Part shown: in pieces, positions 6,186 through 45,546 of the stretch | Layout of the letters: each line of letters starts with the position of its first letter | How positions within the stretch are numbered: position 1 is the stretch's first letter | Source: a virus | Direction: 5' to 3' (one strand) | Length of the DNA stretch: 64,000 bases | IMG/VR virus record: IMGVR_UViG_3300044712_002679 | Location: 116,406-180,405 of that record | Translations under genes and position numbers: made by a program | Notes under the pieces: model-generated | The model's input: the letters and a program-made list of their open reading frames with translations, nothing else | Database searches by the model: none | What the model was told of the DNA's origin: nothing

Positions 6186-6995
6186 TTACCAATTCATTTT
6201 TCTTCCTTTTTTCCAACCATTTAATAAATAATCATTTAAATCTTTTTTATTTATCTTGATACATTTTTTTTCATTTTCACATATTATCCAACATTTTCCA
6301 AATTGTGAATTCTTTTCACCTTTTTGGGATATTGAATTTGCTTGACCAATTTTTATTTTAGTTTCATCTGAATGTTTTCTATTAACCCAAAATGATATTA
6401 ATTCACCATTAATATATCGTTCATCATCTTTACTAACTAGCATCACCTTATCTATATTATCTTTAACTAGTACTAGTCCTTTGTGTATTGATATTAATTC
6501 ACCATTAATATATCGTTCATCAGTATTAAAAACATTAAAAATATTACCATCTTTATCTTTACATATAATTCTATTTTTTTGTATAGATATCAATTCACCA
6601 TTAATATATCGTTCATCATCTTTACTAACTTTCAAAATATTACCATCTACATCATTAACCACAATTTTATTTTGAAATATTGGTCTATATTTATCTAAAT
6701 TATTATTTATATAATACCAACCACCACTTCCACCCAAAGTTAAATTGTAATATTCTTTAGAATTAACCACATCTTCATTTACTAATTCTTTTTCTTTTTT
6801 TAACATATCTTCTTTAGATTTACAAAAATGCAATATAACTTTTTCAAAATTATCAACACCATATTTATTTATAGCATTTTTTAAATATTTACCCGACCCC
6901 ATATAATCATCAAAAATATTTTCTGTTACATGACAGCCAATATATTTTTTATTATTAATTTTATTGGTTATTTCATAAATAATATAATTTTTCAT
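6186..6995 (-). CDS. GIY-YIG homing endonuclease with C-terminal tandem ~22-aa repeats
   Basis: N-terminus KNYIIYEITNK...KYIGCHV...MGSGKYLKNAINKYG (GIY...YIG + catalytic block); start moved to internal ATG 6995 to avoid overlapping tRNA 7056-7132; repeats (ERYINGELISI) encoded by DNA repeats 6390-6665. Confidence 0.7.
   Translation of the reverse strand: MKNYIIYEITNKINNKKYIGCHVTENIFDDYMGSGKYLKNAINKYGVDNFEKVILHFCKSKEDMLKKEKELVNEDVVNSKEYYNLTLGGSGGWYYINNNLDKYRPIFQNKIVVNDVDGNILKVSKDDERYINGELISIQKNRIICKDKDGNIFNVFNTDERYINGELISIHKGLVLVKDNIDKVMLVSKDDERYINGELISFWVNRKHSDETKIKIGQANSISQKGEKNSQFGKCWIICENEKKCIKINKKDLNDYLLNGWKKGRKMNW
6390..6665. repeat. imperfect tandem DNA repeats (unit containing caccattaatatatcgttcatca) inside GIY-YIG gene
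   Basis: at least three near-identical ~35-bp blocks at ~6397, 6496, 6596. Confidence 0.65.
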
Positions 6996-7055
6996 AACTT
7001 TTTTATTTGTATATATTAAATAAAAAAGTTCGATTTTAGTTCGAATTAAATTTTT

Positions 7056-7132
7056 GGGTGAAAGACGGGGTACGATCCCGCAAAGTTCCTGGTTCACAGC
7101 CAGGCAAGTCTACCAATTCCTCTACAATCACC
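7056..7132 (-). tRNA. tRNA-His-like (anticodon GUG, G-1:C73) with A54/U58-swapped T-loop and two U-U acceptor mismatches; possibly degenerate
   Basis: anticodon arm CCTGG-CTGTGAA-CCAGG, T-arm GCGGG-ATCGTAC-CCCGT. Confidence 0.4.
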
Positions 7133-9077: not shown

Positions 9078-9094
9078 ACGTATGTGCGTCTGGT

Positions 9095-9167
9095 GGGTCA
9101 CGATCCCACGACTCCATCATTAAAAGTGATGTACTCTACCAACTGAGTTACAGACGCAAAAATATTC
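9095..9167 (-). tRNA. tRNA-Lys (UUU), canonical class I, A54/U58-swapped T-loop (ATCGTGA)
   Basis: acceptor GCGTCTG/CAGACGC + A73, D-arm ACTC-AGTTGGTA-GAGT, anticodon arm CATCA-CTTTTAA-TGATG. Confidence 0.75.
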
Positions 9168-9196
9168 AATATGTCAATGAACTTTAAAAAAAATTG

Positions 9197-9282
9197 TGAT
9201 CCCGATGGGACTCGAACCCATGTACAACTTTCGTATCCCACATTAAAAGTGTGGTGCCTCGTTCCAACTCGGCCACGGAATC
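9197..9282 (-). tRNA. class-II (long variable arm) tRNA with anticodon UUU and discriminator A73
   Basis: acceptor GATTCCG/CGGGATC (one G-U), 3-bp D-stem GCC/GGC, anticodon arm CCACA-CTTTTAA-TGTGG perfect, 16-nt variable arm, T-arm ATGGG-TTCGAGT-CCCAT. Confidence 0.55.
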
Positions 9283-14144: not shown

Positions 14145-14632
14145 ATTGGTAATATGTGAAATTCTTTTAAAAATATATAATTTACAATATATTCCCAATT
14201 AGGGAATTCTTTAGAACCAAATTTTATAAATTCACCTTTAAAATCTAATTGTCCATGCATATCAGTATCATCAATTAGATAATCTCCAATATGTAAAGAT
14301 TTATCACATGACATATCAAGTCTTTCTAATGTTTCAAATCCTAAATGTTCAAGAACCCAATATGCTTTTTCTGTATAACTATTTAGATTATATATTGATG
14401 GTCGAGTTAAAATACGAACTTCAAAATATTCTTCAAGTTTTTTAAATGCTTTAATTGCACCTGGGATTTCTTCCAATTTAATAAAAAATCCAAACTGTGA
14501 TTGTGGATATTTTTGTGTTGGACATTTTTCCAAATCATTTAAATATGCCTTTGCAAAATTGCAAAGAACCCCATCTAAATCCACATATATTATTTTATTT
14601 TTTTTCATTTTTAAAATTTTTAAATTTTTCAT
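14141..14632 (-). CDS. HAD-family 5'(3')-deoxyribonucleotidase
   Basis: N-terminal IIYVDLDGVLCNF (DxDGVL motif I of HAD deoxyribonucleotidases). Confidence 0.65.
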   Translation of the reverse strand: MKNLKILKMKKNKIIYVDLDGVLCNFAKAYLNDLEKCPTQKYPQSQFGFFIKLEEIPGAIKAFKKLEEYFEVRILTRPSIYNLNSYTEKAYWVLEHLGFETLERLDMSCDKSLHIGDYLIDDTDMHGQLDFKGEFIKFGSKEFPNWEYIVNYIFLKEFHILPI

Positions 14633-15389
14633 ATTTTCTATTCAAATATATATCAGACAAATTTTCTTCATAAATATAATTTAAAAAATTAAATGCATCT
14701 CTATACAAATATAATCTATTTGTTGAATAATGTTTTAAAATTTTTGTTTTTTTTGTTATTATTTTATTTTTTTCTAAAAAATCTTGAATTTGTTCTAAGC
14801 ATTCTTTAGTTGATATTAAATTTACTTTTATTCTATTATTATCTTTACCATATATTGTTAATGATCCATCACCATCAAACATACCAGCTATAAAATTCAA
14901 ATAATATTTTTCATCTATGTTTTTAATAATGAAATTATCACTTTTTTCAACATTTATATATTTTTGTAATTTTTTTGTGAATAAATTATTTGTAATAGAT
15001 ATTACATATGAAGTATATTCTTTATTGTTTCTTTTGTCAATAGTTGTATTTTTAACAATTTTATGTTCAGATTCTAATGACTTTTTAAATTTTATTAATA
15101 TTTCTTCATCTTTAGATACTAATCTAACTTTATTATTTTTTAAACAACCATCTGCAACAATAAAACCTAACCAATACGCTTTTTCTTTCGTGTCAATATT
15201 ATCAAAATATGATATATTGAATTTTAATTTGCTTTCATTTAACCTATTTCTATTTGTATTAATATTATTGTTTCTTAATATATTACTTACTGTTACTTGT
15301 GATATATTTAATTTTTTTGATATTTCAATTTGTTTATTTGTTAACGATAAATTAATTATTTCTGTTATTAAATCTTTATTTATTTTCAT
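14595..15389 (-). CDS. LAGLIDADG homing endonuclease (two-motif, monomeric type)
   Basis: AYWLGFIVADGCL and NFIAGMFDGDGSL motifs; N-terminal HTH-like segment. Confidence 0.7.
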   Translation of the reverse strand: MKINKDLITEIINLSLTNKQIEISKKLNISQVTVSNILRNNNINTNRNRLNESKLKFNISYFDNIDTKEKAYWLGFIVADGCLKNNKVRLVSKDEEILIKFKKSLESEHKIVKNTTIDKRNNKEYTSYVISITNNLFTKKLQKYINVEKSDNFIIKNIDEKYYLNFIAGMFDGDGSLTIYGKDNNRIKVNLISTKECLEQIQDFLEKNKIITKKTKILKHYSTNRLYLYRDAFNFLNYIYEENLSDIYLNRKYEKFKNFKNEKK

Positions 15390-18976: not shown

Positions 18977-19564
18977 TTATTTAATATATGCTAAACATTT
19001 GTTTTTTGCTTCTGTAAGTTCAATGAATTTATCTTGACTACCACCTTTATCAGGATGATATATTTTAGATAATTCACGATATTTAGACTGAACATCATCT
19101 TTAGTGGCATCAGTAGTCAACCCCAAGAAATCAAATGATTCTCTTGGTACTAAACTATTAAAGAATAAGGATGCCAAAAAACCGAAATGTGCAAATGGAT
19201 CAAATCCATCAAATGGATCATTCCATCTTCGATATTCTTCCCGTCTACGTTGATTTTCTTCTTTTTCTCTACGTCTACGTTCCATTTCTGTTGGAAACAA
19301 ATCTTCACGCATTTTAACTATAACTGATGCATAAAAATAATTCCAAAGTTTTTCTGGCAATTGACCAGCAGTTTTTTTATCAATACCATCCCATTTCATT
19401 CGAATTGCACGAACAGCATTTTCGAATCCTTTGATATTTTGATAAGAATTTCCAACTTCAAGTAGTGTTAGAAAATCTTGTGTTAAATCAGCAATAAATT
19501 CATTATGCTTAAAATTAACACCATGTAATAAATTGTACTTTTTTTGATAATCTAATGTTTTCAT
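18977..19564 (-). CDS. J-domain (DnaJ-like) protein, J domain C-terminal
   Basis: DVQSKYRELSKIYHPDKGGSQDKFIELTEAKN (HPD motif); start moved to ATG 19564 (track start is a TTG). Confidence 0.6.
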   Translation of the reverse strand: MKTLDYQKKYNLLHGVNFKHNEFIADLTQDFLTLLEVGNSYQNIKGFENAVRAIRMKWDGIDKKTAGQLPEKLWNYFYASVIVKMREDLFPTEMERRRREKEENQRRREEYRRWNDPFDGFDPFAHFGFLASLFFNSLVPRESFDFLGLTTDATKDDVQSKYRELSKIYHPDKGGSQDKFIELTEAKNKCLAYIK

Positions 19565-19588
19565 TGTTGTTGTTTTTAAATGATGACA

Positions 19589-19596
19589 CAAAGATA
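19589..19596 (-). promoter_or_regulatory. TATCTTTG promoter-like element (minus strand) + AAAAACAACAACA leader before ATG 19564
   Basis: reverse complement reads TATCTTTGTGTCATCATTTAAAAACAACAACAATG. Confidence 0.55.
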
Positions 19597-19639
19597 GTAA
19601 TAATTTTTTTAATATTACCAAAATATTGTAGTTTTTTCA

Positions 19640-19685
19640 AAAAAAAAGGAAGGCTATACAGTTTAAGCCTTCCCAAAAATTTTAA
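19640..19685. terminator. intrinsic terminator hairpin GGAAGGCT...AGCCTTCC
   Basis: 8-bp inverted repeat flanked by A9 and AAAAATTTT. Confidence 0.55.
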
Positions 19686-19927
19686 GATATTATTTTATTC
19701 AATGATCAATTGAATATGGGTCAATATTCTTAATAAACCCTTACGTTTGATTAGGTTACAAACCTTTAAAAAAACCGTTTCTCCACTATATTTTTCATTA
19801 ACGTTGAAAAACATCTCCAAACTAGAACCCAAAAAATCATACGACTGTCAAATTAAGATTATGATCCGATTAACGTTGAACGATCTTAATTTATATAATA
19901 TATAATGAAGTTAAAAAAAAGTTTATT

Positions 19928-20329
19928 TTATTTACAATAATAGCAAAAATTATAACCTGAATTAACCCGTCTAGTCAAACATTTTTGACACCATTCATTA
20001 TTTCCTTTGCGCAATTCTATTTCCGATTTAGTTAAAGCAACATTATAATTTTGTTTTCGATTGGTTATTTTATTTAATTTTGGATTATATTTTTTAATCA
20101 AGTCATATTCTAAATCAAGCATATCTGTTTGATTTTCACATATTTTTATTACTTCAAAAATCAAATCCTTTCCATTAGCTTTATGCCAACGAAATCTATC
20201 ATTTGGAACTTGGACTGTTGTACCAATATAGACAAGTTCTTTTGTTTTTTTATCAAGACCTTTATAAATATAAAAACCTTTTGAAAAAATAAGATTTTTA
20301 TTTTTTGCACACAATAAATCAGATTCCAT
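19928..20329 (-). CDS. GIY-YIG endonuclease with C-terminal Cys4 zinc finger
   Basis: GFYIYKG...ELVYIGTT...R...H and CQKC...CYYCK. Confidence 0.7.
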   Translation of the reverse strand: MESDLLCAKNKNLIFSKGFYIYKGLDKKTKELVYIGTTVQVPNDRFRWHKANGKDLIFEVIKICENQTDMLDLEYDLIKKYNPKLNKITNRKQNYNVALTKSEIELRKGNNEWCQKCLTRRVNSGYNFCYYCK

Positions 20330-20706
20330 TATCCAAGTTTTCTTAAATAAATTAATTGTAGTGGACTAACTTTACCATATTTTTTCAATGTTGCTAATAT
20401 ACTTTTGTAGAATTTTCTGTCATTTACTGATAAACGACTATTTAGATCATATAACTGTTTGAAATGTGTATAGCTAACAGAAACCCAATCATCAGGTACT
20501 TTGTCCAACTTATTATCTAAATTGTTGTAAATTTTAGTCACAGCACCAAAAGATGCTTGTTTTTTACCATTATCTGTCGCAATTTTTATCGCTTTAATCC
20601 ACAATTCTGGTTCTTCAATATGTCGCATATCCTGCATCATAAAAAATTCTTTTGGATATACAGGTGATTTTACATTTTCGTTAAATTCAACAAATTTGGT
20701 TTTCAT
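20329..20706 (-). CDS. hypothetical protein (125 aa)
   Basis: 1-nt overlap with downstream GIY-YIG gene. Confidence 0.45.
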   Translation of the reverse strand: MKTKFVEFNENVKSPVYPKEFFMMQDMRHIEEPELWIKAIKIATDNGKKQASFGAVTKIYNNLDNKLDKVPDDWVSVSYTHFKQLYDLNSRLSVNDRKFYKSILATLKKYGKVSPLQLIYLRKLG

Positions 20707-20878
20707 ATACCTATATATATTAAAAAATTATTTAATAAAATCGGATGTGTTTCTATGTTCCCAAAATTTTCTACATTTAACAGCAGTATTCTTTTTTTCG
20801 AGTTTACAGTTCCCATATTCTGCACATTTTCTACACAAGATGATGTATGATGTATTTTTTTCAGTTTTCATATACCAA

Positions 20879-21616
20879 TTATTTTAATCTTGTTATAGTT
20901 ATAATAACACCACCAACACTAGTTCCACTTGTTTTGAATGCACCCCTTGGAATATTTTCGATATTAGCATTAACTTCACTTAGCCAATTTCTAAATTCGG
21001 TTTCTTTTTTATTATTTGAATTTTTCCAATGTTCAGATGCGATTGATACCAATTTGCCACCACATTTCAATAATTCATACATATGTTTTACGTGGTCGAT
21101 ATCTTGATTGGCTGTGAATGGTGGATTTGCTATAATTTTATCATATACAGGTTGATTCGGAATCATTAAAAAATCTCCAACTTCATGATGAAAACCTTTT
21201 TTATTTAGTATTAATGAATTTGCTTCCATCAATTCAATTGCAAGAACTTGACAATCAATATTTTTTCTTAATATCGCTTCGATTATAGCACCTTGACCTG
21301 CACTAGGTTCTAATACAATATCATTTTCTTTTAAATCTGCCAAATTCACTAATTTATCTGCAAGTTCACTTGGTGTTTCAAAAAATTGATATTCTTTTTT
21401 TAAATTACGTTTTTCACCATTGGATATTTGATTAAGTAAATCAGTAGGATCAGAATTAAACACAAACCCAAACGTTTTACCACCAACCCATTTACCACCA
21501 ATCAAATTAAGTGATTTTGCTACATCTTGGTATAATTTTCTTTCGAGTTGAACATTTGGTAATTTAACAACATTACCATCAACGGTACATTGAATTAATA
21601 CTTCTTCTTTTGTCAT
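20879..21616 (-). CDS. DNA methyltransferase, N6-adenine (or N4-cytosine) type
   Basis: motif I VLEPSAGQGAII and motif IV IIANPPF. Confidence 0.7.
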   Translation of the reverse strand: MTKEEVLIQCTVDGNVVKLPNVQLERKLYQDVAKSLNLIGGKWVGGKTFGFVFNSDPTDLLNQISNGEKRNLKKEYQFFETPSELADKLVNLADLKENDIVLEPSAGQGAIIEAILRKNIDCQVLAIELMEANSLILNKKGFHHEVGDFLMIPNQPVYDKIIANPPFTANQDIDHVKHMYELLKCGGKLVSIASEHWKNSNNKKETEFRNWLSEVNANIENIPRGAFKTSGTSVGGVIITITRLK

Positions 21617-21651
21617 AAAATTGTTGTTTTAAATGATTGTGCAAAGATAGT

Positions 21652-21659
21652 TAATTTTT
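21652..21659 (-). promoter_or_regulatory. TATCTTTG promoter-like element (minus strand) before ATG 21616
   Basis: reverse complement TATCTTTGCACAATCATTTAAAACAACAATTTTATG. Confidence 0.55.
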
Positions 21660-21670
21660 TATTAAATAAC

Positions 21671-21702
21671 AAAAAAAAAGAGGATTTAAATCCCCTTTTT
21701 TA
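21671..21702. terminator. intrinsic terminator hairpin GGATTT-AAATCC with flanking A/T runs
   Basis: follows stop of 21700-23271. Confidence 0.5.
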
Positions 21703-23271
21703 ATCTAATGTTGTGTATTCAAACCCATCTTTGGTTTTAAAGAATACTATATGTTGAAATTTGCCTAATTTATTTATAATTCCGTGTGCATTAATCCAAG
21801 TAGTTAAACCCTTATTATAATTTAATCGTAATTGTGTAGATGTTCCAACACAACAACTTCCAGAAACCCTAGAAATTGCGTGTGTGTGTCCAACCACATT
21901 TTTAACCGACAATTTTGAAAATTGATTCATTCCACCACGACTGCCAGATGCACCTAAATTTCCATGCATTGAACACAAATATCCATTAACAACAATATTA
22001 TCATTATATGTTAAACAATGAAAATTTGGATATTTTTTATTAATAACATAAGGTACGATACCATTTGGTGCTTCACCTTTTAATATAACACTAGCATATT
22101 CCATATAAGGAATTGCATTTTTTAGTGAATTCATTTTTCTCCAATCAGTTTCACGCAAAAATCTATCAACATGTTCATCATGATTTGATTTCACTATATA
22201 AACATCATAATCTTTTATTTGTGATAACCATTCTAACATTTCATCCAATTCTTTTTGAAGCGAATTTGATCCGTTCATTTCCATTTCGTGTTGTAAAAAT
22301 GGATCATTTGTGTTATGATGTGTTATAGAATATGAATCCATTATATCATGAATAAACAATGTTTTTGGATATAATTTTTGACATAAATCATTTAATGTTT
22401 TATCAATAATTTCAGTATTTACACATTTTGTATGAATATCACCCATTATCAACGCATCAACAGTTTCAATTCTTTTAACAACACCATTATTTACATGATA
22501 AAACAAATCAATAAATTCGCCAGTATCTTTTGCGCTTACTTGTCTAAAGAAATAAGTATCTTCATCTTTTATTTCAACAATAGCAAACCCACTCGAAAAA
22601 TGAAATTCCCCTTTTTTACCAGCCTTTGTATCAGAAAAATTTTGTTTTGTAACTGCACCAGTAGTAAACATTAACTTTGGTTTATATTCATTTATAACTG
22701 GAACTGTTTTTAATTCTATTTTTGGATGTCCAACAACACAAGAATAATCACCTGTCATACCTTCAAGTCCCATTAATGGTGAATAAGCTGTTGGTTGTAT
22801 TTTAACATCACCTAGTACTTGTATTGATTTATTTAAGTTGTGCCTATTTAACGTTAAATGTGGTACAATTTTTTCATCCCACCAATCATTATCAGTATTT
22901 GTATTTATACTTGTTGGGTTGTGATAACGAAAAGGAATTACCAAAATTTCAGCATCAAGAACATCTTTATATGATAACATATTATTCCATAACCCAATAT
23001 TTACACTTGTTGCATTTTGTGCAGAAGTAATAAAATAATATTTTTTTGATTTATCGTGTTGTTTTAATTTTGCAAGTTTTATTTGTTCAGGTATAATAAT
23101 TACTTTTTCTTTTATTCCTAATTTTTCTGAACACCATCTTCTAAGTGTTCTTTCGGATTTATTTGTAAAATCCATAAGTATTTTCATCCTATCATCCCAA
23201 GTTTTTGTTCTATCCCAATATATACTACGAATTTTTTCAATATCTTCATCTTTTAGGTCTTTAAATTTCAT
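21700..23271 (-). CDS. calcineurin-like metallophosphoesterase with N-terminal HTH-like region
   Basis: LIMGDIHTK (GDxH), VKSNHDEH (GNHD/E), GHTH blocks in C-terminal half. Confidence 0.65.
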   Translation of the reverse strand: MKFKDLKDEDIEKIRSIYWDRTKTWDDRMKILMDFTNKSERTLRRWCSEKLGIKEKVIIIPEQIKLAKLKQHDKSKKYYFITSAQNATSVNIGLWNNMLSYKDVLDAEILVIPFRYHNPTSINTNTDNDWWDEKIVPHLTLNRHNLNKSIQVLGDVKIQPTAYSPLMGLEGMTGDYSCVVGHPKIELKTVPVINEYKPKLMFTTGAVTKQNFSDTKAGKKGEFHFSSGFAIVEIKDEDTYFFRQVSAKDTGEFIDLFYHVNNGVVKRIETVDALIMGDIHTKCVNTEIIDKTLNDLCQKLYPKTLFIHDIMDSYSITHHNTNDPFLQHEMEMNGSNSLQKELDEMLEWLSQIKDYDVYIVKSNHDEHVDRFLRETDWRKMNSLKNAIPYMEYASVILKGEAPNGIVPYVINKKYPNFHCLTYNDNIVVNGYLCSMHGNLGASGSRGGMNQFSKLSVKNVVGHTHAISRVSGSCCVGTSTQLRLNYNKGLTTWINAHGIINKLGKFQHIVFFKTKDGFEYTTLD

Positions 23272-23326
23272 ATTTAAATTTTTTTTTTTCTTATATAATA
23301 TATTTTAAATTATTTGTTTAATAATA

Positions 23327-23761
23327 TTATGTTAATTGTTGCTTATGATTCATCAACTTATAAAAATCATATTCAAAAATCATATTTTTTGGTATTGAAA
23401 AAGTTGAAAACATGTCAGCCATTTCTTGACACGAATAATTATTTAAATTATCACCAGTACCAGAATATGCTACAATAAATAGAAATTTTAATCCATTTTC
23501 ACTTTCAGCATATTCATATAATTCTTTAATTTGTTTAATTATAAAATCTTTTGAAATTGATGGATGTATTTTTTTTGTTAAATCTTTTGTTATAATTGCA
23601 TAAGAATTACCTTGTAATCCTGATGCTTGCCCGTAAATTGCCCCACATCTTAATCTTGCAAACAAAGCGGATCCTTTCCCGTGGCGACCTTGATTATTAG
23701 ATCCAAATACAAAAATTTGATTTGGTTTAATATTTTTTATTTTTCCTTTATAAACTAACAT
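23327..23761 (-). CDS. LOG/SLOG-like Rossmann-fold protein (tentative)
   Basis: IFVFGSNNQGRHGKGSA ... GLQGNSYAII ... YSGTGDN pattern. Confidence 0.35.
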   Translation of the reverse strand: MLVYKGKIKNIKPNQIFVFGSNNQGRHGKGSALFARLRCGAIYGQASGLQGNSYAIITKDLTKKIHPSISKDFIIKQIKELYEYAESENGLKFLFIVAYSGTGDNLNNYSCQEMADMFSTFSIPKNMIFEYDFYKLMNHKQQLT

Positions 23762-26190: not shown

Positions 26191-27068
26191 TTTTCTTCGA
26201 AATATGAAAATTTGTGTAATTTTTTAATAAAAATTTGACCTTGCTTGCGTATATAAGCTTCCACTTTTTTAATATTCTTATTATCAAAATATTTTCCAAT
26301 ATTATTTTTTTCTGTTTTAGATAATTCATCAAAATTAAAATTAAAATTACACATATCTTTATAATACTTAAGTGGATATTTATTTTCTTCTTCTTTTATT
26401 GTATTTAATAAATTTTTGGATTTTTTCACTTTAAGATAAAATTCGTGTAATCTTGCGGATAATTCATCTTCGTTTGCCAAGTAACAATAAACTAAAAATT
26501 TTTTATATGATTCAGAACCATCGGTTGTTGAAGTTAAATCAGTAATTGATGCGATACTACCAAATCTAACTTCATGTATAAATAAGTCAACAATATCACC
26601 CTTAAAAATGCGTTTAGTATCATCTGAAAAAAATTCATTTCGACTACGAGAATATAATATCTTACTTTTAATAGTTCTATCTACTAAATGTTTAATTTCG
26701 TGAGTTAATAGTTCTTTAGTATCATATTCTTTATTTTCAATACCCAACATTATATCAACATAATATTTATTTCTTTTGTTTTTTTGTTTTTTTGGTATAA
26801 TATTAACTGAAGCTATTGCTCGATTATAATATATACTAACTATAATATTACTTATAAAAACTAATTCTGTATTTTTTAATTGCCATGATCCATTAATATA
26901 AACTTCATTGGGCTTTAAAATATTTATATTAAATTCTGAAATATCAACAATTGTTTGGGTTTCTTTTTTATCAATCGCATCTTCAATTTGTTTCCACATT
27001 TTTTCGACAATTTCAAGTGTTAATTTATTTACACCCAATTTTTCAAATATTTTAAAAGTTGTTATCAT
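26187..27068 (-). CDS. hypothetical protein with HExxH motif (possible zinc metallopeptidase)
   Basis: ELLTHEIKHLVD. Confidence 0.4.
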   Translation of the reverse strand: MITTFKIFEKLGVNKLTLEIVEKMWKQIEDAIDKKETQTIVDISEFNINILKPNEVYINGSWQLKNTELVFISNIIVSIYYNRAIASVNIIPKKQKNKRNKYYVDIMLGIENKEYDTKELLTHEIKHLVDRTIKSKILYSRSRNEFFSDDTKRIFKGDIVDLFIHEVRFGSIASITDLTSTTDGSESYKKFLVYCYLANEDELSARLHEFYLKVKKSKNLLNTIKEEENKYPLKYYKDMCNFNFNFDELSKTEKNNIGKYFDNKNIKKVEAYIRKQGQIFIKKLHKFSYFEEN

Positions 27069-28588
27069 AATTCAATAATTTTGATTTTTTTCTTTTTACA
27101 CAATGAAATCAATTTTTCTTTATTTTCTTGGTCTGATTCAGATACTTTAAGATAGTTATCAGTTAATCTGATTTCTTTAATGTAATTTATTGGTATTTTA
27201 TTTGCATGAATTTGAATTTCCGAATATAAATTATAAAATCTATCCCCTTCGATAAATACTTTACCTTTACTTGTTTCAAAAACACGACCATCATTTTTAT
27301 GATTTAAATTTTCTAAAATTGTTTTTGATTCATATTTATATTCTGGATAAAATTTTTCTTTTACTAAATTTGAATAAATTTTTTTTAATTCTTTTTTCTT
27401 ATATATTGTATCCACATTTTCTGCCACACTATCCAATAATGTAAAAGTCACTTTAAATTTTTCATAAATAGATGGTTTAAAATATATCATAACCGAACCA
27501 TGACCAGTTTCATATCCACCATCATTAAACCAATCCGGAATACAAAATATCAAATCTTCTGTTCCAAATTTTTCAAGTTCAATTTCTTTTCTTTCATTCC
27601 ACCAAGTTTCATTTTCATCTATAATTTGAATTTCTTTTTTTAATTCATTTCTACTCATCAAAAATCCTTTTTCAAGTATTGATATTACGGATTCATATGA
27701 TGATAAGTGTCTAGCAAATGGATATTCATCATTTTCAGCATCATTTTCAGCATCATTTTCAGCATCATTTTCAGCATCATTTTCAGCATCATTTTCAGCA
27801 TCATTTTCAGCATCATTTTCAGCATCATTAAATAATATACCAATTCCTTGTATTTGATTATTATTAGTTTGATATGTAAATTCTTTATATATTTTACCTT
27901 CTTTAATTTCATTCCAAAATTTAACAACACCTGGACAAGTTGAATCGTTAATGTCATGAAACATAACGATTTTAGCATATTTACCCAAATTTTCATAATC
28001 GGTAGATACACCTTCATATGAATGATCAGCATCAATAAATATAAAATCATATTTTTGACCTTTAAAATCTTCACTTGTTCCTATATGTAAATTAATGTAT
28101 TGTTTTATATCTTCAGTTAATCCTTTATCTGAAATATCAACACCAATAGATTTTAAATTTGGATTTTTGAGTTTTAAAATATTATCAATTAATATATGGG
28201 TTCCACCTTTAAATATACCCACCTCAACATATGTATTTATATCATATTTCAACAATTCTAATAAAGCATCAGCTATTTGTTTTGGGGTTTGAAACATAGC
28301 TTCTTCGTTTCTATCATAAACCATATATTGATTCCATTCACCATAACCATCTCTATCTTCTACACATAAACCATAATCGCAAACTAAATTTATAATATCA
28401 ACTTCTTTAATATCGGTCGCATTTAATTTAGAAATACTTTCAATTAATTTTTTATTTTTACTAAATTTGTTATCTTCAAATATATTTATATTTTTGTGCG
28501 TGAAATCACTAAACCGTTTAATCATAATCAAAAAATCTATTTTACATATATATAAAAAAATTAAACAACATTCTAATAAAAAAAACAT
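27065..28588 (-). CDS. CmcI/TylF-type class I SAM-dependent O-methyltransferase domain protein with (ENDA)n repeat and C-terminal extension
   Basis: YVEVGIFKGGTHILIDN ... YDFIFIDADHSYEGVSTD ... HDI; ENDAENDA... from 12-bp repeat. Confidence 0.6.
   Translation of the reverse strand: MFFLLECCLIFLYICKIDFLIMIKRFSDFTHKNINIFEDNKFSKNKKLIESISKLNATDIKEVDIINLVCDYGLCVEDRDGYGEWNQYMVYDRNEEAMFQTPKQIADALLELLKYDINTYVEVGIFKGGTHILIDNILKLKNPNLKSIGVDISDKGLTEDIKQYINLHIGTSEDFKGQKYDFIFIDADHSYEGVSTDYENLGKYAKIVMFHDINDSTCPGVVKFWNEIKEGKIYKEFTYQTNNNQIQGIGILFNDAENDAENDAENDAENDAENDAENDAENDAENDEYPFARHLSSYESVISILEKGFLMSRNELKKEIQIIDENETWWNERKEIELEKFGTEDLIFCIPDWFNDGGYETGHGSVMIYFKPSIYEKFKVTFTLLDSVAENVDTIYKKKELKKIYSNLVKEKFYPEYKYESKTILENLNHKNDGRVFETSKGKVFIEGDRFYNLYSEIQIHANKIPINYIKEIRLTDNYLKVSESDQENKEKLISLCKKKKIKIIEL
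27727..27838. repeat. 12-bp tandem repeat (catcattttcag) x~9 inside CDS
   Basis: read directly; in-frame, encodes NDAE repeats. Confidence 0.85.
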
Positions 28589-28620: not shown

Positions 28621-29154
28621 ATGAAGCAAAAAGAATCAGAAAACAGAATTAATTATTCAATTAAAGATTTAACCGTAAGGTTAGTTGGTGATAATGTTAC
28701 AAATGGTGTAATTGACACTAAAAGTGCAATAAAATTGGCTAGAGATATGGAATTAGATTTGGTCGAAATTTCGGGTCCAGTTAACGGAAATCCATCAATT
28801 TGCAAAATAGTTGACTATCAAAAATATCTTTACGACAAAAAGAAAAAAGATAAAGATCAAAAGAAAAAGCAAAAATTAAGTCAGTCAGAAGTCAAAGAAA
28901 TTAGAATGACCCCGCATACTGATGAACACGATTTTAATTTTAAATTAAATCATGCTAAAAACTTCTTAACCAATAACGATAAAGTATTAGTTTCAGTATT
29001 CTTTAAGGGTAGAGAAATATCATATAAAGAACAAGGTCAAATTGTTTTATTAAAATTTGCAAAGGAATTGGAAGATATTGGCATACCTGAGTATTTACCT
29101 AAACTAGAAGGAAAAAAAATGCTAATGATGATTAAACCTAAACCAAAAAAATAA
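28621..29154 (+). CDS. infC: translation initiation factor IF-3
   Basis: aligns by eye with E. coli IF3 across N- and C-domains (NRIN..VRL.G; DLVEISP.A.PPVCRI.DY.K.LY; KKKQK...VKEI..P..DEHD...KL.....FL; GRE). Confidence 0.85.
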   Translation: MKQKESENRINYSIKDLTVRLVGDNVTNGVIDTKSAIKLARDMELDLVEISGPVNGNPSICKIVDYQKYLYDKKKKDKDQKKKQKLSQSEVKEIRMTPHTDEHDFNFKLNHAKNFLTNNDKVLVSVFFKGREISYKEQGQIVLLKFAKELEDIGIPEYLPKLEGKKMLMMIKPKPKK

Positions 29155-32896: not shown

Positions 32897-33355
32897 TTAA
32901 ATTAATGATTGAAATTTTACATATTTTTTAGGACACAAATAAAAATTTCGATAACTTTTTTCTTTTTTATCATACAATTCTTTAAAAAACCAATTTTTAT
33001 ATGTACTACTATATATTATTAAACACTTGGTTTTAGAAGCATTTAATATTATATAGCAATATAATGTCCTTATATTTCTTTTATCTATTTTATATTTTTC
33101 ATCAACAATTATATCTTGGTATGGTACATCATCAAATGTCATAAAATCTATTTCTTTCCATTGTTTGACTTCAACCCGCATTGATATTTTTATATCACCA
33201 TCATCAGTATGTTCATATCTCGATTCTTCATCTGGTGTTACAGTATATGGTAAAATCTCACTATCAAAACCCAATTTTGTCATCCAATTATTAACAACAA
33301 TTGTTGCTTTTTTAGCATCATTTAAATTTTGCGTAAAAATGTTTCTGGGTTTCAT
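32897..33355 (-). CDS. hypothetical protein (152 aa)
   Basis: 4-nt overlap with polB fragment stop. Confidence 0.45.
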   Translation of the reverse strand: MKPRNIFTQNLNDAKKATIVVNNWMTKLGFDSEILPYTVTPDEESRYEHTDDGDIKISMRVEVKQWKEIDFMTFDDVPYQDIIVDEKYKIDKRNIRTLYCYIILNASKTKCLIIYSSTYKNWFFKELYDKKEKSYRNFYLCPKKYVKFQSLI

Positions 33356-34722
33356 ATTGAAAATATTGAATTTAATACTGACAATCTTTTATTTATTGTT
33401 GGTAATCCTATTGGTTCGAGAAAACGATTCACAATATGTAAGAATGTTAAATCAAATTGTTCATCAAAATCAATTTTAACACCTTCTTTTTCTACAATTT
33501 CATATGGATGCATACTTCTTTGAAAAGCAAAAACATTATTTTTAGGATGATTACAATAATAATATTTTATTCTTCCACCTCTTATATTATCATATTTTAC
33601 TTTATATTCCGAATTTTTGTTTAATAAATAATTGTGTAATGCTGCAGCTTTAACACCAAAATGCGCACCTTTAATACATACAACATCGGTTACATCATCT
33701 ATACACTTAATTGAATAATTACTACAACTAGTGGTCATACTAATATCTTCGATATCTGCCATTATAAATTCTCGCTTCATATCTTTAACCAATTTTAAAA
33801 CTTTTCTAATATCAATATTATTAGGATTTCCAAATATATACCTTAAAAAATCATAAATATTTTCTCTAACAAATGGTGGTGTAGAAGATTTAACAATCTC
33901 AACACCCTTTGGATAAAAATATGTCAAATTTTCATAAAAAATTCCATCTTCCCAAACAACATTGTTTATGTAATTCTTTTTTTGAATATGTAATGCTGAA
34001 CGATTAATTGTTTCAAGTTCAAATACATGAAGATTTTTAACACCATATCTTGATGCATATTCAACAAGCCAACTGTTATATAATTTTTCAACAAATATTC
34101 TATTAGCATGTAATATCCAATCCAATTCTTCACCCATATAATTAGATGAATCAATCATTGGTTTAAAAGAAATATATAATGAATCGGTATCACCATATAT
34201 GATTATTGGCTTTTCTTTTGGAATTTGTTCTATATGTGAAAAGTCACCAATTATTCTTTTAAATAAAATATTATAACTTTTAAATTCTTTCTTATCTTCA
34301 ATTAAATCGAATTTATTTATATTTAACTTTTTTAATAACCCATCATCACCATCTAATGAATTGTGTGGATAATTAATATTCATTCCATTAATATCCAACA
34401 AGAAATATTTACCTTCTTTTTCGGCTATATATTCTAAACCTAATCTTTTGTGGGTTTCGATATCCAAATGCCACTCATTATAAAAATATTGTTCAATTTT
34501 TTTCAACATAAAATTTATAACATCACGACCATGTGCAGTAATAGCATTTGCTATATGTGAATTTGATATTACAAAATGCGGATTTGCGAATGCGCCGTAT
34601 GTTCCGTTAATCACGAGCTTAAGTGCTAATTGCATCGCTTTCGCTCTATCATATTCAGCTTTTGTTTCGTCTATTCGACTTTTTAATTCCGCAATTTTTT
34701 GTCTTTTTTCATCAGGTGTCAT
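33352..34722 (-). CDS. family-B DNA polymerase, C-terminal half only (motif B to thumb)
   Basis: KLVINGTYGAF (KxxxNSxYG motif B), IIIYGDTDSLY (motif C), IQKKNYI (KKRY-like); ORF begins ~40 aa before motif B; no exonuclease or motif A region. Confidence 0.75.
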   Translation of the reverse strand: MTPDEKRQKIAELKSRIDETKAEYDRAKAMQLALKLVINGTYGAFANPHFVISNSHIANAITAHGRDVINFMLKKIEQYFYNEWHLDIETHKRLGLEYIAEKEGKYFLLDINGMNINYPHNSLDGDDGLLKKLNINKFDLIEDKKEFKSYNILFKRIIGDFSHIEQIPKEKPIIIYGDTDSLYISFKPMIDSSNYMGEELDWILHANRIFVEKLYNSWLVEYASRYGVKNLHVFELETINRSALHIQKKNYINNVVWEDGIFYENLTYFYPKGVEIVKSSTPPFVRENIYDFLRYIFGNPNNIDIRKVLKLVKDMKREFIMADIEDISMTTSCSNYSIKCIDDVTDVVCIKGAHFGVKAAALHNYLLNKNSEYKVKYDNIRGGRIKYYYCNHPKNNVFAFQRSMHPYEIVEKEGVKIDFDEQFDLTFLHIVNRFLEPIGLPTINKRLSVLNSIFSI

Positions 34723-34815
34723 TTAATATAATATATTTTTCTATATTTAGCATAAAAAAATTTTTTTGTTTATAAATTGTTTTCTGTTTTTAATATATAA
34801 GAAAAAAAATACAAT

Positions 34816-35217
34816 ATGCATATACAATTATTTAATGAACATCATAATGATTTAGAAATTTGGAAAAAAATGATGGATGAATATGATTTAAAATATTTTA
34901 CAGAATTAAGTCAATTATCTAAATCTGATTTAGAACAAATGAGGGAAGATTGGAAAGCGATGAGAAGATATGCGTTATATAAATTAAATCTAGAATTAAA
35001 TAATTCTGGTAAAATTGGACAATTATTGAATGTTGATGTTGAAGATTCAGAATTATATCCATATTTAGATGATAAAGAAGCCAAATTCGGTGGAAATAAA
35101 GAACATTTAACATATAAACAATTATTCTTTAAATATTCTAGAATATTAGATTTTAATGATGGATATAAGCCAAAAAATTTAATATTGATAACCAAAGAAT
35201 TGAAAAATCTCAAATAG
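34816..35217 (+). CDS. hypothetical protein (133 aa)
   Basis: antisense ORFs 34911-35237 are low-complexity and rejected. Confidence 0.45.
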   Translation: MHIQLFNEHHNDLEIWKKMMDEYDLKYFTELSQLSKSDLEQMREDWKAMRRYALYKLNLELNNSGKIGQLLNVDVEDSELYPYLDDKEAKFGGNKEHLTYKQLFFKYSRILDFNDGYKPKNLILITKELKNLK

Positions 35218-36458: not shown

Positions 36459-37232
36459 TTATAATAAATTTGGGATGTGTATAAACACAGTTACTATTCT
36501 AGTTGTCGTCGTCGTTGTCGTAGGTGCTACGGTTGTCGTCGTCGTTGTCGTAGGTGCTACGGTTGTCGTCGTCGTTGTTATTGGTCTTCTAGTAGTTGTC
36601 GTCGTTGTTATTGGTCTTCTAGTAGTTGTCGTCGTTGTTATTGGTCTTCTAGTAGTTGTCGTCGTTGTTATTGGTCTTCTAGTAGTTGTTGTCGTTGTTG
36701 TTATTGGTCTTCTAGTAGTTGTTGTCGTTGTTGTTATTGGTCTTCTAGTAGTTGTTGTCGTTGTTGTTATTGGTCTTCTAGTAGTTTTTGGTCTATTTGT
36801 TATTATTTTTGATCTATTTACAGATGATAATAATACAATTGTTGTAGTAATTGTTGTAGTTGGAACAAAAATAAAATCAGATTCAAATATTCGTAAATTC
36901 ATAGTATGCCAATCTGTTGCTGTTTCTGAAAAAGCAAAAAATATATTTGTTCCTGTTGAATATTTAATTTTAGCTATTGAAATTATATAATAATTTAAAA
37001 ATTTATTTATTAATAAATAATTTGAATTATTATTTGATAAATATTGTACTAAATTTTTGCTATAACCCTTACCTCTTAAAGATAATGGAATTGTATTGAA
37101 ATCAATTTCAACTTCAGCTAAAAATGTGATATTATTTTTTTCAAAAAAATCAAATATATTAGAATATGTGCCAGATTTAAGTTTAAATTTAACATAATGA
37201 TCATTTAACCAACAATATCCAACATTTGTCAT
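36459..37232 (-). CDS. protein with GNAT-like N-terminal region (tentative) and Thr-rich (TTTTTTRRPI)n tail
   Basis: LRGKGYSKNLVQYL resembles GNAT motif A; tail encoded by ~33-bp DNA tandem repeats. Confidence 0.45.
   Translation of the reverse strand: MTNVGYCWLNDHYVKFKLKSGTYSNIFDFFEKNNITFLAEVEIDFNTIPLSLRGKGYSKNLVQYLSNNNSNYLLINKFLNYYIISIAKIKYSTGTNIFFAFSETATDWHTMNLRIFESDFIFVPTTTITTTIVLLSSVNRSKIITNRPKTTRRPITTTTTTTRRPITTTTTTTRRPITTTTTTTRRPITTTTTTRRPITTTTTTRRPITTTTTTRRPITTTTTTVAPTTTTTTTVAPTTTTTTTRIVTVFIHIPNLL
36503..36800. repeat. ~30-33-bp tandem repeats (gtcgtcgttgttattggtcttctagtagtt) x~9
   Basis: read directly; in-frame Thr-rich repeats. Confidence 0.85.
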
Positions 37233-38733: not shown

Positions 38734-39498
38734 TTATATTGTTAATTCTAATGCTATTAATAAACTGGTATTTTGATTATCTATAAATAAAAAAGTGTCA
38801 AACACATAGACTGTAATATCATCTTCTGTGAATGTTATAGATTTAAAATATTTTTTGGGGAATGTTATTGATAAGTCATCGTGGGTTATATCACAAATTT
38901 TAAGATTCCATTGTATATCTTCACCAATCGAAAGACTATTATCAGTTATATCTAATGTAAGAATATCATTTTCATTATCAACTGCTCCAATTTTTTTAAT
39001 TTTTGTAAATGAATTTTTATCTAATGTGAATTTAAAATCCATATTATTTATATTGACAGTTTTTTTAATTTTTTCGATATCAATATTTGTGTTCATACCC
39101 CGAATATCACCACCAATAATACTTAATTTTAATTTAGAATTTTTTAATTTTAAATTATCTGCATACGTATCATCGTTCATAAAAAATTCACAATTGACAC
39201 TTTCATCATAATCTAAATAATTTTTAAGTGTACTTTCAAATTTAGCACCCTTTTTGACGATATATCTAATTTCTTGTGTTATATCATCAGTAAATGAAAA
39301 AACTTCATTTGTTTTAAAAATAAATGATTTAAATGCATTTACATTTGATTTTTCACCTACAACCACATAAAATAATGTGTCATTTTTATTTATTTTAAAA
39401 AGAATTTCATCATCAATTGATAAAAGATCATGGATTTTATCCAAGAAAAAGTTTAACTGTTGTATTGACATGCTAAACTTGTATGAAATATTCGACAT
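38734..39498 (-). CDS. hypothetical protein (254 aa)
   Basis: ORF heading the minus-strand block. Confidence 0.5.
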   Translation of the reverse strand: MSNISYKFSMSIQQLNFFLDKIHDLLSIDDEILFKINKNDTLFYVVVGEKSNVNAFKSFIFKTNEVFSFTDDITQEIRYIVKKGAKFESTLKNYLDYDESVNCEFFMNDDTYADNLKLKNSKLKLSIIGGDIRGMNTNIDIEKIKKTVNINNMDFKFTLDKNSFTKIKKIGAVDNENDILTLDITDNSLSIGEDIQWNLKICDITHDDLSITFPKKYFKSITFTEDDITVYVFDTFLFIDNQNTSLLIALELTI

Positions 39499-40488: not shown

Positions 40489-41808
40489 ATGACAAAAACA
40501 GAAGAATTTATCCAAAAAGCGAAACTTGTTCACGGGGATAAATATAATTATTCTAAAGTCGAATATATTAATAATCACACTAAAGTTACTATTATTTGTC
40601 CAAAGCATGGTGAATTTAAACAACAACCAGCAAATCATTTAAATAATATGGGTTGTCCAAAATGTGTTGGCAATATAAAATTAACAACAACAGATTTTTT
40701 ATCAAAAGCAAAAGAAATTCATGGGGATAAATATGATTATTCAAAAGTTGAATATGTCGGAATATTTAATCACGTGAAAATAATTTGTCCAATTCATGGG
40801 GAATTTGAACAAACACCAAGACAACATCTTAAAGGTCGTGGGTGTTATAAATGTGGTGGTACACAAAAATATACACAAAATGAATATGTTATAAAAGCAA
40901 AGGAACTTCACGGGGATAAATATGATTATTCAAAAGTTAATTATTTGGGTGGTAGAAAAGATATAATTATAATTTGTCCTAAACACGGTGAATTTAAACA
41001 AAAAGCTGGTCAACATATACATGGTTCAGGTTGTCCAAATTGTGCTGGATTAGGGTTTATATTTCTATCATTTGAAGAAGCAAAAATTTTTGTTAAAAAT
41101 CTTAATTTACAAACACAAAATGAATGGCAAAAATATTGTAAATCGGGAAATAAACCTGATAATATACCAATAGCACCCGAAATTGTTTATAAAAAAGTTT
41201 GGATTAACTGGGGTGATTGGTTGGGTACATTTAAAATTTCAAATCAAAAAAAAGAATATTGGACATTTGAAGAAGCTAGAATATTTGTTAGAAATCTTAA
41301 TTTAAAATCAATAACAGAATGGAAAAGATATTGTAAAAATGAAAATAAACCTAGCAATATTCCAAATGATCCATACGGAACGTATAATAAATATGGTTGG
41401 TTAAATTGGGGTGATTTTTTAGGCTCATTTACATTAGCACCAAAAGATAGACAATATTTATCATTTGAAGAAGCAAGAAATTTTGTTAGAACACTTAATT
41501 TAAATTCAAAAGAAAAATGGGTAAATTATTGTAAATCGGGAAGTAAGCCTAACAATATTCCAAATGATCCATATAGTTATTATAAAGATGATGGTTGGAT
41601 TGATATGGGGGATTGGTTGGGTACATTTACAATTGCCCCACGATATAAACAATTAAATTATCTTTCAGAAGAAGAATTCATACAATTTATTAAAGATACA
41701 TTTCCAAATTTATATGGTGCTGAACTTCATAAAGCATATGAAGCTTGGTGGGATGAAAATAAACCAGAATATTTACCAAAGGATGTTGCTAAATATTATA
41801 ATAAATAA
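40489..41808 (+). CDS. repeat-family protein 1: 4 N-terminal Zn-ribbon modules + 5 x ~57-aa KSGNKP.NIP/WGDWLG repeats + conserved C-terminal tail
   Basis: modules HGDKYDYSKVEY..(K)V.IICP.HGEF.Q.P..HL.G.GCP.C x4; repeats (FEEAR.FVR.LNL.S...W..YCKSGNKP.NIP.DP...Y...GW..WGDWLGTF); tail LSEEEFIQFIKDTFPN...AYEAWWDENKPEYLPK. Confidence 0.7.
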   Translation: MTKTEEFIQKAKLVHGDKYNYSKVEYINNHTKVTIICPKHGEFKQQPANHLNNMGCPKCVGNIKLTTTDFLSKAKEIHGDKYDYSKVEYVGIFNHVKIICPIHGEFEQTPRQHLKGRGCYKCGGTQKYTQNEYVIKAKELHGDKYDYSKVNYLGGRKDIIIICPKHGEFKQKAGQHIHGSGCPNCAGLGFIFLSFEEAKIFVKNLNLQTQNEWQKYCKSGNKPDNIPIAPEIVYKKVWINWGDWLGTFKISNQKKEYWTFEEARIFVRNLNLKSITEWKRYCKNENKPSNIPNDPYGTYNKYGWLNWGDFLGSFTLAPKDRQYLSFEEARNFVRTLNLNSKEKWVNYCKSGSKPNNIPNDPYSYYKDDGWIDMGDWLGTFTIAPRYKQLNYLSEEEFIQFIKDTFPNLYGAELHKAYEAWWDENKPEYLPKDVAKYYNK

Positions 41809-41811
41809 TTT

Positions 41812-43515: not shown

Positions 43516-43518
43516 TTT

Positions 43519-44823: not shown

Positions 44824-44877
44824 AATAAAAATTTTTTAAAAAACTTACAATAAATTTGCTTTTTCGTAATAAAAACT

Positions 44878-44885
44878 TATATTTG
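44878..44885 (+). promoter_or_regulatory. TATATTTG promoter-like element upstream of 44914
   Basis: TAnnTTTG. Confidence 0.4.
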
Positions 44886-44913
44886 CACAATGTTTAATTA
44901 AAAATATAAGTTT

Positions 44914-45546
44914 ATGAAAAAGTTTTTATCATTTGAAGAAGCAAAGGCATTTGCACAAAGTTTAAATTTAAAATCCTTAAAGGATTGGAAAGATTACTGT
45001 AAATCGGGTAACAAACCTAATAATATTCCAAATGATCCGTACAGTGCATATAAAAACAACAATTGGATTTCGTGGGGTGATTGGTTGGGTACATTTAGGG
45101 TTTCGAATAGGAACAAACAGTTCATATCTTTTGAAGAAGCAAAAGAAATTATCAAAAAATTAAATTTGAAAAACCGAAAAGATTATGAAAAATATCAATC
45201 AGATATGATTGAAAAACTTAATAATGCGACTGTACCAACAAATCCAAATGTTGTATATAGTAGTTCTTGGAAAAGTTGGAATGATTTTTTGGGTATAGAA
45301 CCAAATGAATTTCTTCCATTTGAAGAAGCAAGGAATTTTGTGCGATCACTTAATTTAAAAAGTGTTCGGGATTGGGAAAAATACAGAAAACAAAAACCTG
45401 ATAATATTCCATCTTTACCAAGTAGTTATTATAAAGAAAAATGGATAAATTGGGGGGATTGGTTAGGAACAAACAATGTTGCTACTAAATACGTATCATT
45501 CGAAGATGCAAAAAATATTGTTCGTAAATTAAAAGATTCAAAATGA
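44914..45546 (+). CDS. repeat-family protein 4 (short; ~3.5 repeats, no Zn ribbon, no tail)
   Basis: same repeat unit. Confidence 0.65.
   Translation: MKKFLSFEEAKAFAQSLNLKSLKDWKDYCKSGNKPNNIPNDPYSAYKNNNWISWGDWLGTFRVSNRNKQFISFEEAKEIIKKLNLKNRKDYEKYQSDMIEKLNNATVPTNPNVVYSSSWKSWNDFLGIEPNEFLPFEEARNFVRSLNLKSVRDWEKYRKQKPDNIPSLPSSYYKEKWINWGDWLGTNNVATKYVSFEDAKNIVRKLKDSK

Follow-up and report, generated by a model that had tools for sequence, protein, structure and literature searches.

The minus strand of a 64,000-nt stretch of viral DNA (positions 116,406 to 180,405 of IMG/VR record IMGVR_UViG_3300044712_002679; hereafter the window, meaning the whole stretch that was analysed) carries an open reading frame (ORF) of 456 amino acids (aa) that holds the C-terminal half of a family-B DNA polymerase. 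The window has a G+C content of about 25% and bears several marks of very large phages, namely a transfer RNA (tRNA) array, a homologue of translation initiation factor 3 (IF3), ATP-grasp genes and many endonuclease-like genes. The polymerase ORF, its motifs and the spacer upstream of it lie as follows.

33352..34722, minus strand: gene for the C-terminal half, very probably the C-terminal subunit, of a split family-B DNA polymerase, 456 aa (PF00136, phmmer, Foldseek, substitution rates)
34723..34815, no strand: AT-rich divergent intergenic spacer of 93 bp, with stops in three frames and no intron-like RNA
34621..34722, minus strand: N-terminal 34 residues, MTPDEKRQKIAELKSRIDETKAEYDRAKAMQLAL, predicted to form a single long helix, an extended distal part of fingers helix P (AlphaFold2 (AF2), alignment)
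34588..34620, minus strand: motif B, KLVINGTYGAF, of the fingers helix that binds the incoming deoxynucleoside triphosphate (translation)
34180..34197, minus strand: motif C, YGDTDS, with the catalytic aspartates, intact and free of inteins (translation)
33970..33981, minus strand: KKNY, a primer-terminus motif of the KKRY type in the palm (translation)

Pfam analysis of the ORF returned a match to DNA_pol_B (PF00136, E 1.9e-15) that covers only positions 136-453 of the 453-position profile, and it did not find the PF03104 exonuclease domain. What the ORF encodes is the second fingers helix with motif B, the part of the palm with motif C and KKNY, and the thumb, followed by a conserved C-terminal tail, ...RLSVLNSIFSI; the segment ...RLSVLNSIF is invariant in the homologue alignment and, by analogy with gp43, is a candidate clamp-binding peptide. 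An earlier note, made from the letters of this DNA alone, had described a free-standing C-terminal family-B half that starts about 40 residues before motif B. Translation and domain analysis bore out the half, its three motifs and a start ahead of motif B, although the distance is 34 residues, the motif B lysine being residue 35. Across 31 homologues, K35, N39, Y42 and G43 of motif B, the whole of YGDTDS, and K248, K249 and Y251 of the KKNY region are invariant. As the note had also stated, motif A (DxxSLYPS) and the exonuclease domain are absent, both from the ORF and from the entire window; since they are missing, the ORF represents a subunit and not a complete family-B polymerase. A look-up of the exact protein gave only an 8.7-kb Logan contig, from SRR26046407.

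The region upstream of the ORF is closed to translation. A TAA stands immediately 5′ of the ATG (34722), two further in-frame stops occur inside 10 codons, the remaining frames are closed as well, and the next ORF upstream (34816..35217, plus strand) is divergent from the polymerase gene, in agreement with the earlier observation that the 93 bp contain no continuation. Rfam families searched against the 30-40 kb part of the window at E<=1 gave no intron and no other relevant RNA. When full-length MaF61 PolB, cyanophage gp43A and the N-terminal halves (N-halves) of LR756502 and LR756504 were compared with the window by tblastn, the best match had E = 0.88, and Pfam analysis of 27 window ORFs, the 20 largest included, found no exonuclease or polymerase domain that would signal an N-half. 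A fused query joining the N-half and the C-half had no match in GTDB genomes, and JGI metagenome contigs gave N-halves only; megablast of 10 kb of the window against INPHARED was likewise without a match.

The C-half has numerous relatives with a similar arrangement. In GenBank, the metagenomic huge phages LR756501-LR756504 and LR745206 come nearest, at 41-48% identity; farther off are LR756500 (462 kb) and a Lak megaphage. The five nearer genomes measure 634-735 kb, and we take them to be the 'Mahaphage' genomes of Al-Shayeb et al. 2020. Closer C-halves were found in IMG/VR (75-81% identity) and in a large protein collection (up to 87%). Homologues of the C-half number 736 at E<=1e-20, and at least these 736 are free-standing C-halves that share one start point; the best 120 of the 736 measure 318-619 aa and carry the polymerase domain PF00136 only. 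Homologues of the N-half number 1021 at E<=1e-50, the best 120 of which measure 455-510 aa and carry PF03104 together with the first part of PF00136. About 1000 of these free-standing N-halves, with the exonuclease domain and a motif A that reads DFASLYP, end at the position that matches the start of the C-halves. In IMG/VR, 68 of 70 open frames of N-halves stop at one fingertip position with a helical tail of the form ...KKEELKxxxDEIKxLExEL* (the two others are cut by contig ends), and at none of the 70 N-half loci does a C-half lie within 3 kb. Contiguous family-B polymerases, of roughly 740-860 aa, occurred in IMG/VR only at distant T4-like loci.

The start of the C-half is shared by relatives whose surroundings differ. 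In LR756502 the homologue is a free-standing ORF of 474 aa that begins MTRDEKIKKIALLKNK..., with the same start as the MTPDEKRQKIAELKSR... of the window, and its upstream neighbours are tail-fibre-like genes, unlike those of the window. More generally, the start sequence MT.-EK..KI..LK opens a free-standing ORF in relatives with quite different upstream neighbours. For the window C-half, comparison with five relatives gave a ratio of non-synonymous to synonymous substitution rates (dN/dS) of 0.13-0.16, with dS at roughly 1 or higher and 0.10-0.16 as the range over the whole analysis; this indicates strong purifying selection and argues that the C-half is not a remnant.

The two halves are unlinked. 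The related complete or near-complete genomes have just one gene for each half, widely separated, and gave no further PolB match. Across 16 related genomes or contigs the separation ranges from 8 kb to >280 kb, often with the halves on opposite strands, as in these examples.

LR756502: N-half at 253.9 kb, plus strand; C-half at 120.5 kb, minus strand; about 133 kb apart
LR756504: N-half at 255.9 kb, plus strand; C-half at 538.0 kb, minus strand; about 281 kb apart
LR745206: N-half at 232.8 kb, plus strand; C-half at 130.6 kb, minus strand; about 101 kb apart
LR756501: N-half at 90.3 kb, minus strand; C-half at 709.5 kb, plus strand; 618 kb apart in the linear record, about 116 kb if the genome is circularly permuted
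LR756500: halves 13 kb apart on the same strand
IMG/VR 3300029923_000008: C-half at about 18.5 kb, plus strand; N-half at about 105-107 kb, minus strand; 85 kb apart

The last of these is the most informative relative, its C-half being 76% identical to that of the window. Ten further contigs gave separations of 8, 8, 41, 41, 42, 52, 95, 95, 95 and 113 kb, and one gave 170 kb; a 711-kb contig seems to hold both P0002, an N-half, and P0154, and in sample ERZ27248704 the halves fall on different contigs, of 59.6 and 100.5 kb, which implies a separation of at least 70 kb. The window reaches merely 33 kb and 29 kb to either side of the C-half gene, so the absence of an N-half from it is expected.

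We located the break by comparison with contiguous polymerases. In phmmer alignments, C-half residues 27-80 correspond to residues 552-605 of RB69 gp43, a segment in which the window motif B is aligned to the K560 region; residues 172-327 correspond to RB69 gp43 615-779, and residues 13-80 align to residues 535-602 of a T4-like chain. Since residue 27 is aligned to RB69 residue 552, the C-half starts at about RB69 gp43 residue 526, that is, at the tip of the fingers domain, and the 34 residues that precede motif B align with the fingers helix of contiguous polymerases. N-half and C-half together tile the contiguous MaF61 polymerase, residues 13-560 and 561-994, with no overlap and no gap, and in the multiple alignment the fingertip that contains the break exceeds that of contiguous T4-like cyanophage enzymes by about 20-25 residues. 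The polymerase is therefore split at the fingertip, between motif A and motif B, and the two parts make up a whole enzyme. The AF2 model of the C-half contains a helix at residues 3-38, with predicted local distance difference test (pLDDT) scores of 81-83 across the first 20 residues, and a Foldseek search with this model gave RB69 gp43 as the best matches among PDB entries at a low TM-score; the model displays the N-terminal helix and the RB69-like top matches and is too poor for detailed inference.

Taken together, these findings make it very probable that the ORF encodes the C-subunit of a functional, replicative family-B polymerase built from two subunits, whose genes are broken at the fingertip and unlinked and whose products are not spliced. 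The N-subunit, of about 490 aa, would contribute the N-terminal domain, the 3′-5′ exonuclease, palm motif A and the first fingers helix, while motif B on the second fingers helix, motif C of the palm, KKNY and the thumb would come from the window gene. Given that relatives keep their halves at distances of tens to hundreds of kb and frequently on opposite strands, the partner gene of this genome would be situated outside the 64-kb window. Without an intein at the break, the two unspliced chains would have to assemble non-covalently into one enzyme, and its active site would be composite, with the motif A aspartate provided by one chain and the motif C aspartates and the motif B lysine by the other. 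The clasp that holds them together may be an antiparallel coiled coil of two helices, formed by the extended, heptad-patterned fingertip helices, in addition to the shared palm sheet. Both free ends are helical and amphipathic with heptad-like spacing, a heptad-like hydrophobic pattern is present in the N-terminal head of the window C-half, and we propose this 34-residue head as the docking helix for the tail of the N-half. The lengths of the free ends covary across lineages, such that N-tails of 34-35 aa go with C-heads of 81 aa and tails of 26-31 aa with heads of 31-40 aa. The 81-aa head holds an insertion resembling a tetratricopeptide repeat; the comparison set the pairs L235/L001, L128/L147 and L113/L144 against the others.

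Four points weigh against this two-subunit reading. The N-half of this very genome was not found, either in the 64-kb window or by sequence searches of INPHARED, IMG/VR, GTDB genomes and JGI metagenome contigs; the stand-alone AF2 model of the C-half is mediocre (pLDDT 70, predicted TM-score 0.47); the coiled-coil clasp is deduced from the sequence pattern; and activity and assembly of two subunits in this lineage are deduced from comparison with other systems.

The alternative that survives best, although we regard it as improbable, is that the C-half works without a canonical N-half, either alone or with another partner, and serves for instance as a non-proofreading or regulatory protein. 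Unlinked genes could be expressed at different times, and, as the phiKZ polymerase demonstrates, a split polymerase can take on extra subunits (PMC13648687). However, the motif A aspartate sits on the N-half (DFASLYP), and without it the palm cannot bind both metals; moreover, N- and C-halves co-occur one-to-one on every long contig examined, and the lengths of their free ends covary. Still less credible is a reading of the ORF as the decaying remnant, or a dead duplicate, of a family-B polymerase in a phage that replicates with another enzyme. The window does hold half a polymerase only, and the remainder of the genome is unseen; against decay stand the low dN/dS, the intact set of catalytic motifs, the identical start point in hundreds of homologues, and the related complete genomes, in which each half occurs once and nothing else matches PolB. 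Thus, of the two explanations that the earlier note had offered, separately located genes or a remnant, the first is supported and the second is rejected on the grounds of selection, the shared start and the genomes of relatives.

The halves of the Nanoarchaeum PolB are joined after translation by the trans-splicing of a split intein. That a split intein acts likewise at this break is very unlikely, even though inteins and split inteins do occur in the lineage, where they sit in motif C instead of the fingertip. Fingers helix makes up the 34 residues ahead of motif B, with no room for a C-intein and no ...HN+Ser/Thr/Cys junction, the N-halves end within a helix and lack an intein N-block, and among homologues of both halves a Pfam intein domain was found only in the motif-C intein allele P0193. 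The check for a split intein that the note had suggested thus came out negative, the free ends being fingers-helix sequence with no intein domain at the break, and the check for an upstream exon or a joining at the mRNA level ended in the same way. Equally hard to sustain is a mis-set start with an upstream exon joined in the window through an intron, a frameshift or another RNA-level event, which has in its favour nothing beyond the oddity of a half gene and against it the spacer closed in three frames, the divergent next ORF, the lack of Rfam introns over 30-40 kb, the absence of N-half coding potential anywhere in the window, and the same ATG-proximal sequence in relatives with different upstream neighbours.

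As to the origin of the split, the earlier note had pointed to selfish elements nearby, and both of these were found in the window: a GIY-YIG ORF (6186..7097) and a LAGLIDADG-like ORF (14595..15389). Selfish endonucleases are a plausible cause of the split. In some relatives, endonuclease-like ORFs with DUF7487 repeats, and sometimes with a PD-(D/E)xK restriction endonuclease domain, abut one of the halves; ORFs of the DUF7487 type lie directly after the N-half of LR756500, directly before the C-half at L017 and L229, and beside the N-half at L232. Their position fits an origin in which an endonuclease gene inserted at the fingertip and the halves were later separated by rearrangement, a scenario for which the evidence is circumstantial.

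Inteins and their derivatives are found at motif C of relatives. At L017 (3001..4851) motif C contains a mini-intein of about 160 aa (YGDTD|SVAKDT...ILVHN|SLYVSF; PF14890 in P0193). At L013 (757..3834), L015, L016 and L018 the motif-C intein is itself split by a free-standing endonuclease-like ORF of 400 aa. Motif C of LR756500 is fractured likewise, which leaves its polymerase in three pieces, and the adjoining ribonucleotide-reductase-like gene of this phage is fractured in the same manner. Besides those given for L017 and L013, the coordinates of these inteins and fractured genes are as follows.

L008, 27688..31088 and 19341..23512: inteins or fractured genes as described above

Another kind of interruption was detected in a sister clade. 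At 29 of 50 loci of the LR756502-like clade, an insert of 36-48 nt interrupts the coding sequence of the C-half in or beside motif B.

Loci with the insert: L155, L156, L164, L166, L168-L170, L174-L186, L188, L189, L191-L194 and L196-L198 (IMG/VR contigs)
Example inserts: L168, 2955-3003; L155, 3118-3165; about 30-130 nt after the C-half start codon

The insert occurs at four or more codon positions (after QLA/QLAL, KLV, LNGS and LNGSY) and consists of a GC-rich hairpin of 9-11 bp with a C-rich 5′ arm and a G-rich 3′ arm. Among 20 distinct insert sequences, stem positions 1-8 are paired in all 20, with up to five pair types per position. At the variable stem positions 6-10 the pairing amounts to 0.92, versus 0.47 +/- 0.05 when arms are shuffled among loci, a value reached by none of 2000 shuffles; folding energies range from -19 to -31 kcal/mol, with z-scores of -2.9 to -5.2. 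An automated scan of 668 kb of clade loci placed 27 of 29 such hairpins at the motif-B site, and the window has none. Rfam holds no family for these inserts.

The layout of the insert is regular with respect to the codons around it. In about 17 of 21 distinct cases the stem begins 6 nt past the last conserved sense codon, and a stop codon falls inside those 6 nt in 17 of the 21. Insert length is not restricted to multiples of three and falls in any frame, and motif B is perfectly conserved downstream although no consistent start codon is present there. At its edges a codon of a four-fold box is present twice, as NNT upstream and as NNA (or NNT) downstream (CTT..CTA, GCT..GCT/GCA, GTT..GTA, TCT..TCA), and a run of G stands 5-9 nt ahead of the second of the two; an exact codon duplicate is lacking at the LNGSY|GAF site. 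A divergent DUF7487 ORF of 287-377 aa lies just upstream at 20 of the 29 hairpin loci, remnants included, and at 0 of the 21 loci that lack the hairpin.

Three explanations of the insert were discarded: an intrinsic terminator, as no T-run follows the hairpin on either strand; stop-codon reassignment, as each of the three stop codons is represented and the majority of inserts change the reading frame; and reinitiation, as no consistent in-frame start codon exists and motif B is conserved downstream. In T4, mobA is linked to gene 60, and by analogy the inserts resemble the mobA/gene 60 bypass cassette. Manning and Atkins report that all known elements of the gene-60 type lie in topoisomerase genes (10.1101/2022.08.31.505936). 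That the hairpin forms a second, independent class of programmed translational bypass, in a DNA polymerase, is our leading guess, which we put forward tentatively; RNA-level excision or another mechanism may act instead. If bypass or excision takes place, the interrupted C-half would yield the junction peptide ...ALQLALKLVLNGSYGAF.... The polymerase of this lineage could have been cut repeatedly by selfish elements, with the cut of the sister clade perhaps calling for a new kind of decoding, a view that we hold with more doubt than conviction.

The window contains further features.

38734..39498, minus strand: ORF of 254 aa without family match; a homologue lies just upstream of the C-half gene in distant clade members
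5091-9282, all minus strand: 14 tRNA genes (Lys x3, Trp x2, His x3, Ser x4, Phe x2)
6186..7097: GIY-YIG/NUMOD3 endonuclease ORF between tRNA-His copies, its 5′ end overlapping the tRNA-His gene at 7056-7131
14595-15389, minus strand: ORF of 264 aa with the LAGLIDADG-like motif IAGMFDGDG (PHROG 4645 'endonuclease', E 7e-41)
28621-29154, plus strand: IF3 homologue with IF3_N and IF3_C (precomputed Pfam on an identical Logan contig)
40489-46670, plus strand: tandem ORFs of 439, 567, 434 and 375 aa with treble-clef/DUF723 and 'integrase repeat' PF14882 domains
36459-37232 and 27065-28588, both minus strand: low-complexity repeat proteins
47458-50097, plus strand: 879-aa fusion of a superfamily 2 helicase (ResIII/DEAD/Helicase_C) with a C-terminal Methyltransf_8 domain
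2315-3121, minus strand, and 58155-59207, plus strand: two ATP-grasp proteins of the R2K clade

The product of 38734..39498 had no Pfam, PHROG or PDB sequence match. BLASTP related it at 26% identity (E 5e-19) to L152 1262..2035; equivalents of 254-260 aa occur at L008, L149, L155 and L168, and the linkage with the C-half is conserved. Judged from its size, the protein may be a sliding clamp. The ORFs at 40489-46670, with an additional ORF of 210 aa ahead of the last (375-aa) one, resemble an array of paralogues, selfish genes of a DNA-binding or endonuclease-like kind; comparison with the DUF7487 ORFs of relatives gave no similarity at E<1e-6. One of the repeat proteins contains eight tandem RRPITTTTT(T)(T) units and a Thr-rich tail, and the other, which has a methyltransferase domain, carries eight DAEN repeats in its central part.

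Recognition of the split has practical consequences. Half-length PolB genes in huge phages should be annotated as subunits and not as pseudogenes or assembly errors, and marker-gene phylogenies of huge phages should concatenate both halves. Among the phages of the clade that has this fingertip break are those with the largest genomes in INPHARED, which reach 735 kb. Taken with the motif-C inteins, the split inteins and the motif-B hairpins of its relatives, this gene documents on a small scale how homing elements break up an essential gene and yet leave it alive.

Several split family-B polymerases are known, and the closest in architecture are those of T4-like phages. Natural splits at the fingertip have been described in phages 133, 44RR, 31, 25 and 65 (PMC3061061), and gp43A and gp43B of phage 25 co-purify and are active (PMC2988022). 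These enzymes, from phages of Aeromonas and Acinetobacter, share with the window lineage a fingertip break between motifs A and B and two unspliced polypeptides. Their cistrons, however, are adjacent, 2 bp to 3 kb apart on the same strand (PMC3061061), whereas the halves in huge phages lie 8 kb to >280 kb apart; the earlier note had rightly set its gene apart from gp43A/gp43B on this count, the halves in relatives being unlinked. Moreover, the split is found in few isolates of T4-like phages and defines a large clade of huge phages, whose fingertip, as noted above, is also longer than that of the contiguous cyanophage enzymes, and identity to T4-like polymerases is only 25-31%.

The best experimental support for the proposed mechanism comes from Pfu polymerase, which when split at 467/468, also a fingertip break, is fully active from separate fragments with wild-type kinetics, its C-fragment folding only with the N-fragment (PMC3061061). 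The system differs in being an artificially split archaeal enzyme with bicistronic expression. The break fixed in huge phages coincides with the site that was found accidentally to keep Pfu polymerase fully active and to relax its substrate range, and the extended fingertip helices would offer a natural, testable clasp for the engineering of split polymerases.

Unlinked genes for one family-B polymerase are known from the archaeon Methanothermobacter thermautotrophicus, in which two genes lie 85 kb apart (cited in PMC3061061); there it is the palm that is split, about 83 residues beyond the fingertip position towards the C-terminus. In the chimallivirus phiKZ, DNAP-N (gp82) and DNAP-C (gp50) form a stable 1:1 complex whose structure was determined by cryo-electron microscopy (PMC13648687). 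This too is a family-B polymerase of a jumbo phage, encoded by non-adjacent genes, with motif A and motif C on separate chains. It differs in that the split falls in a large palm insertion after motif A, so that both fingers helices are on the C chain, and in belonging to a very divergent lineage with an extra Rhc subunit.

The gp43 of cyanophage ACG-2014f is likewise a myovirus PolB in two ORFs, but the break is just before motif C, the window residues from about 171 onward match the second coding sequence, and the pieces are adjacent. In the Synechococcus phage ACG-2014f record KJ019099 (L005, 812..3828), the two gp43 coding sequences measure 491 and 325 aa with two small ORFs between them, and the break is the site where huge-phage relatives carry inteins. 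A further comparison is with 'fractured genes', in which split inteins flank a free-standing endonuclease gene (PMC2677866); in the lineage studied here this arrangement occurs at motif C of close relatives (L013, L015, L016, L018 and LR756500), and neither in the window nor at the fingertip.

Searchable literature yielded no prior description of the split in huge phages or 'Mahaphages', which does not prove that none exists. Fingertip splits with adjacent cistrons, and unlinked halves split elsewhere, as in Methanothermobacter and phiKZ, were known already. The novelty lies in the combination of both, fixed throughout a large clade of huge phages in which the break is at the fingertip and the genes are unlinked.

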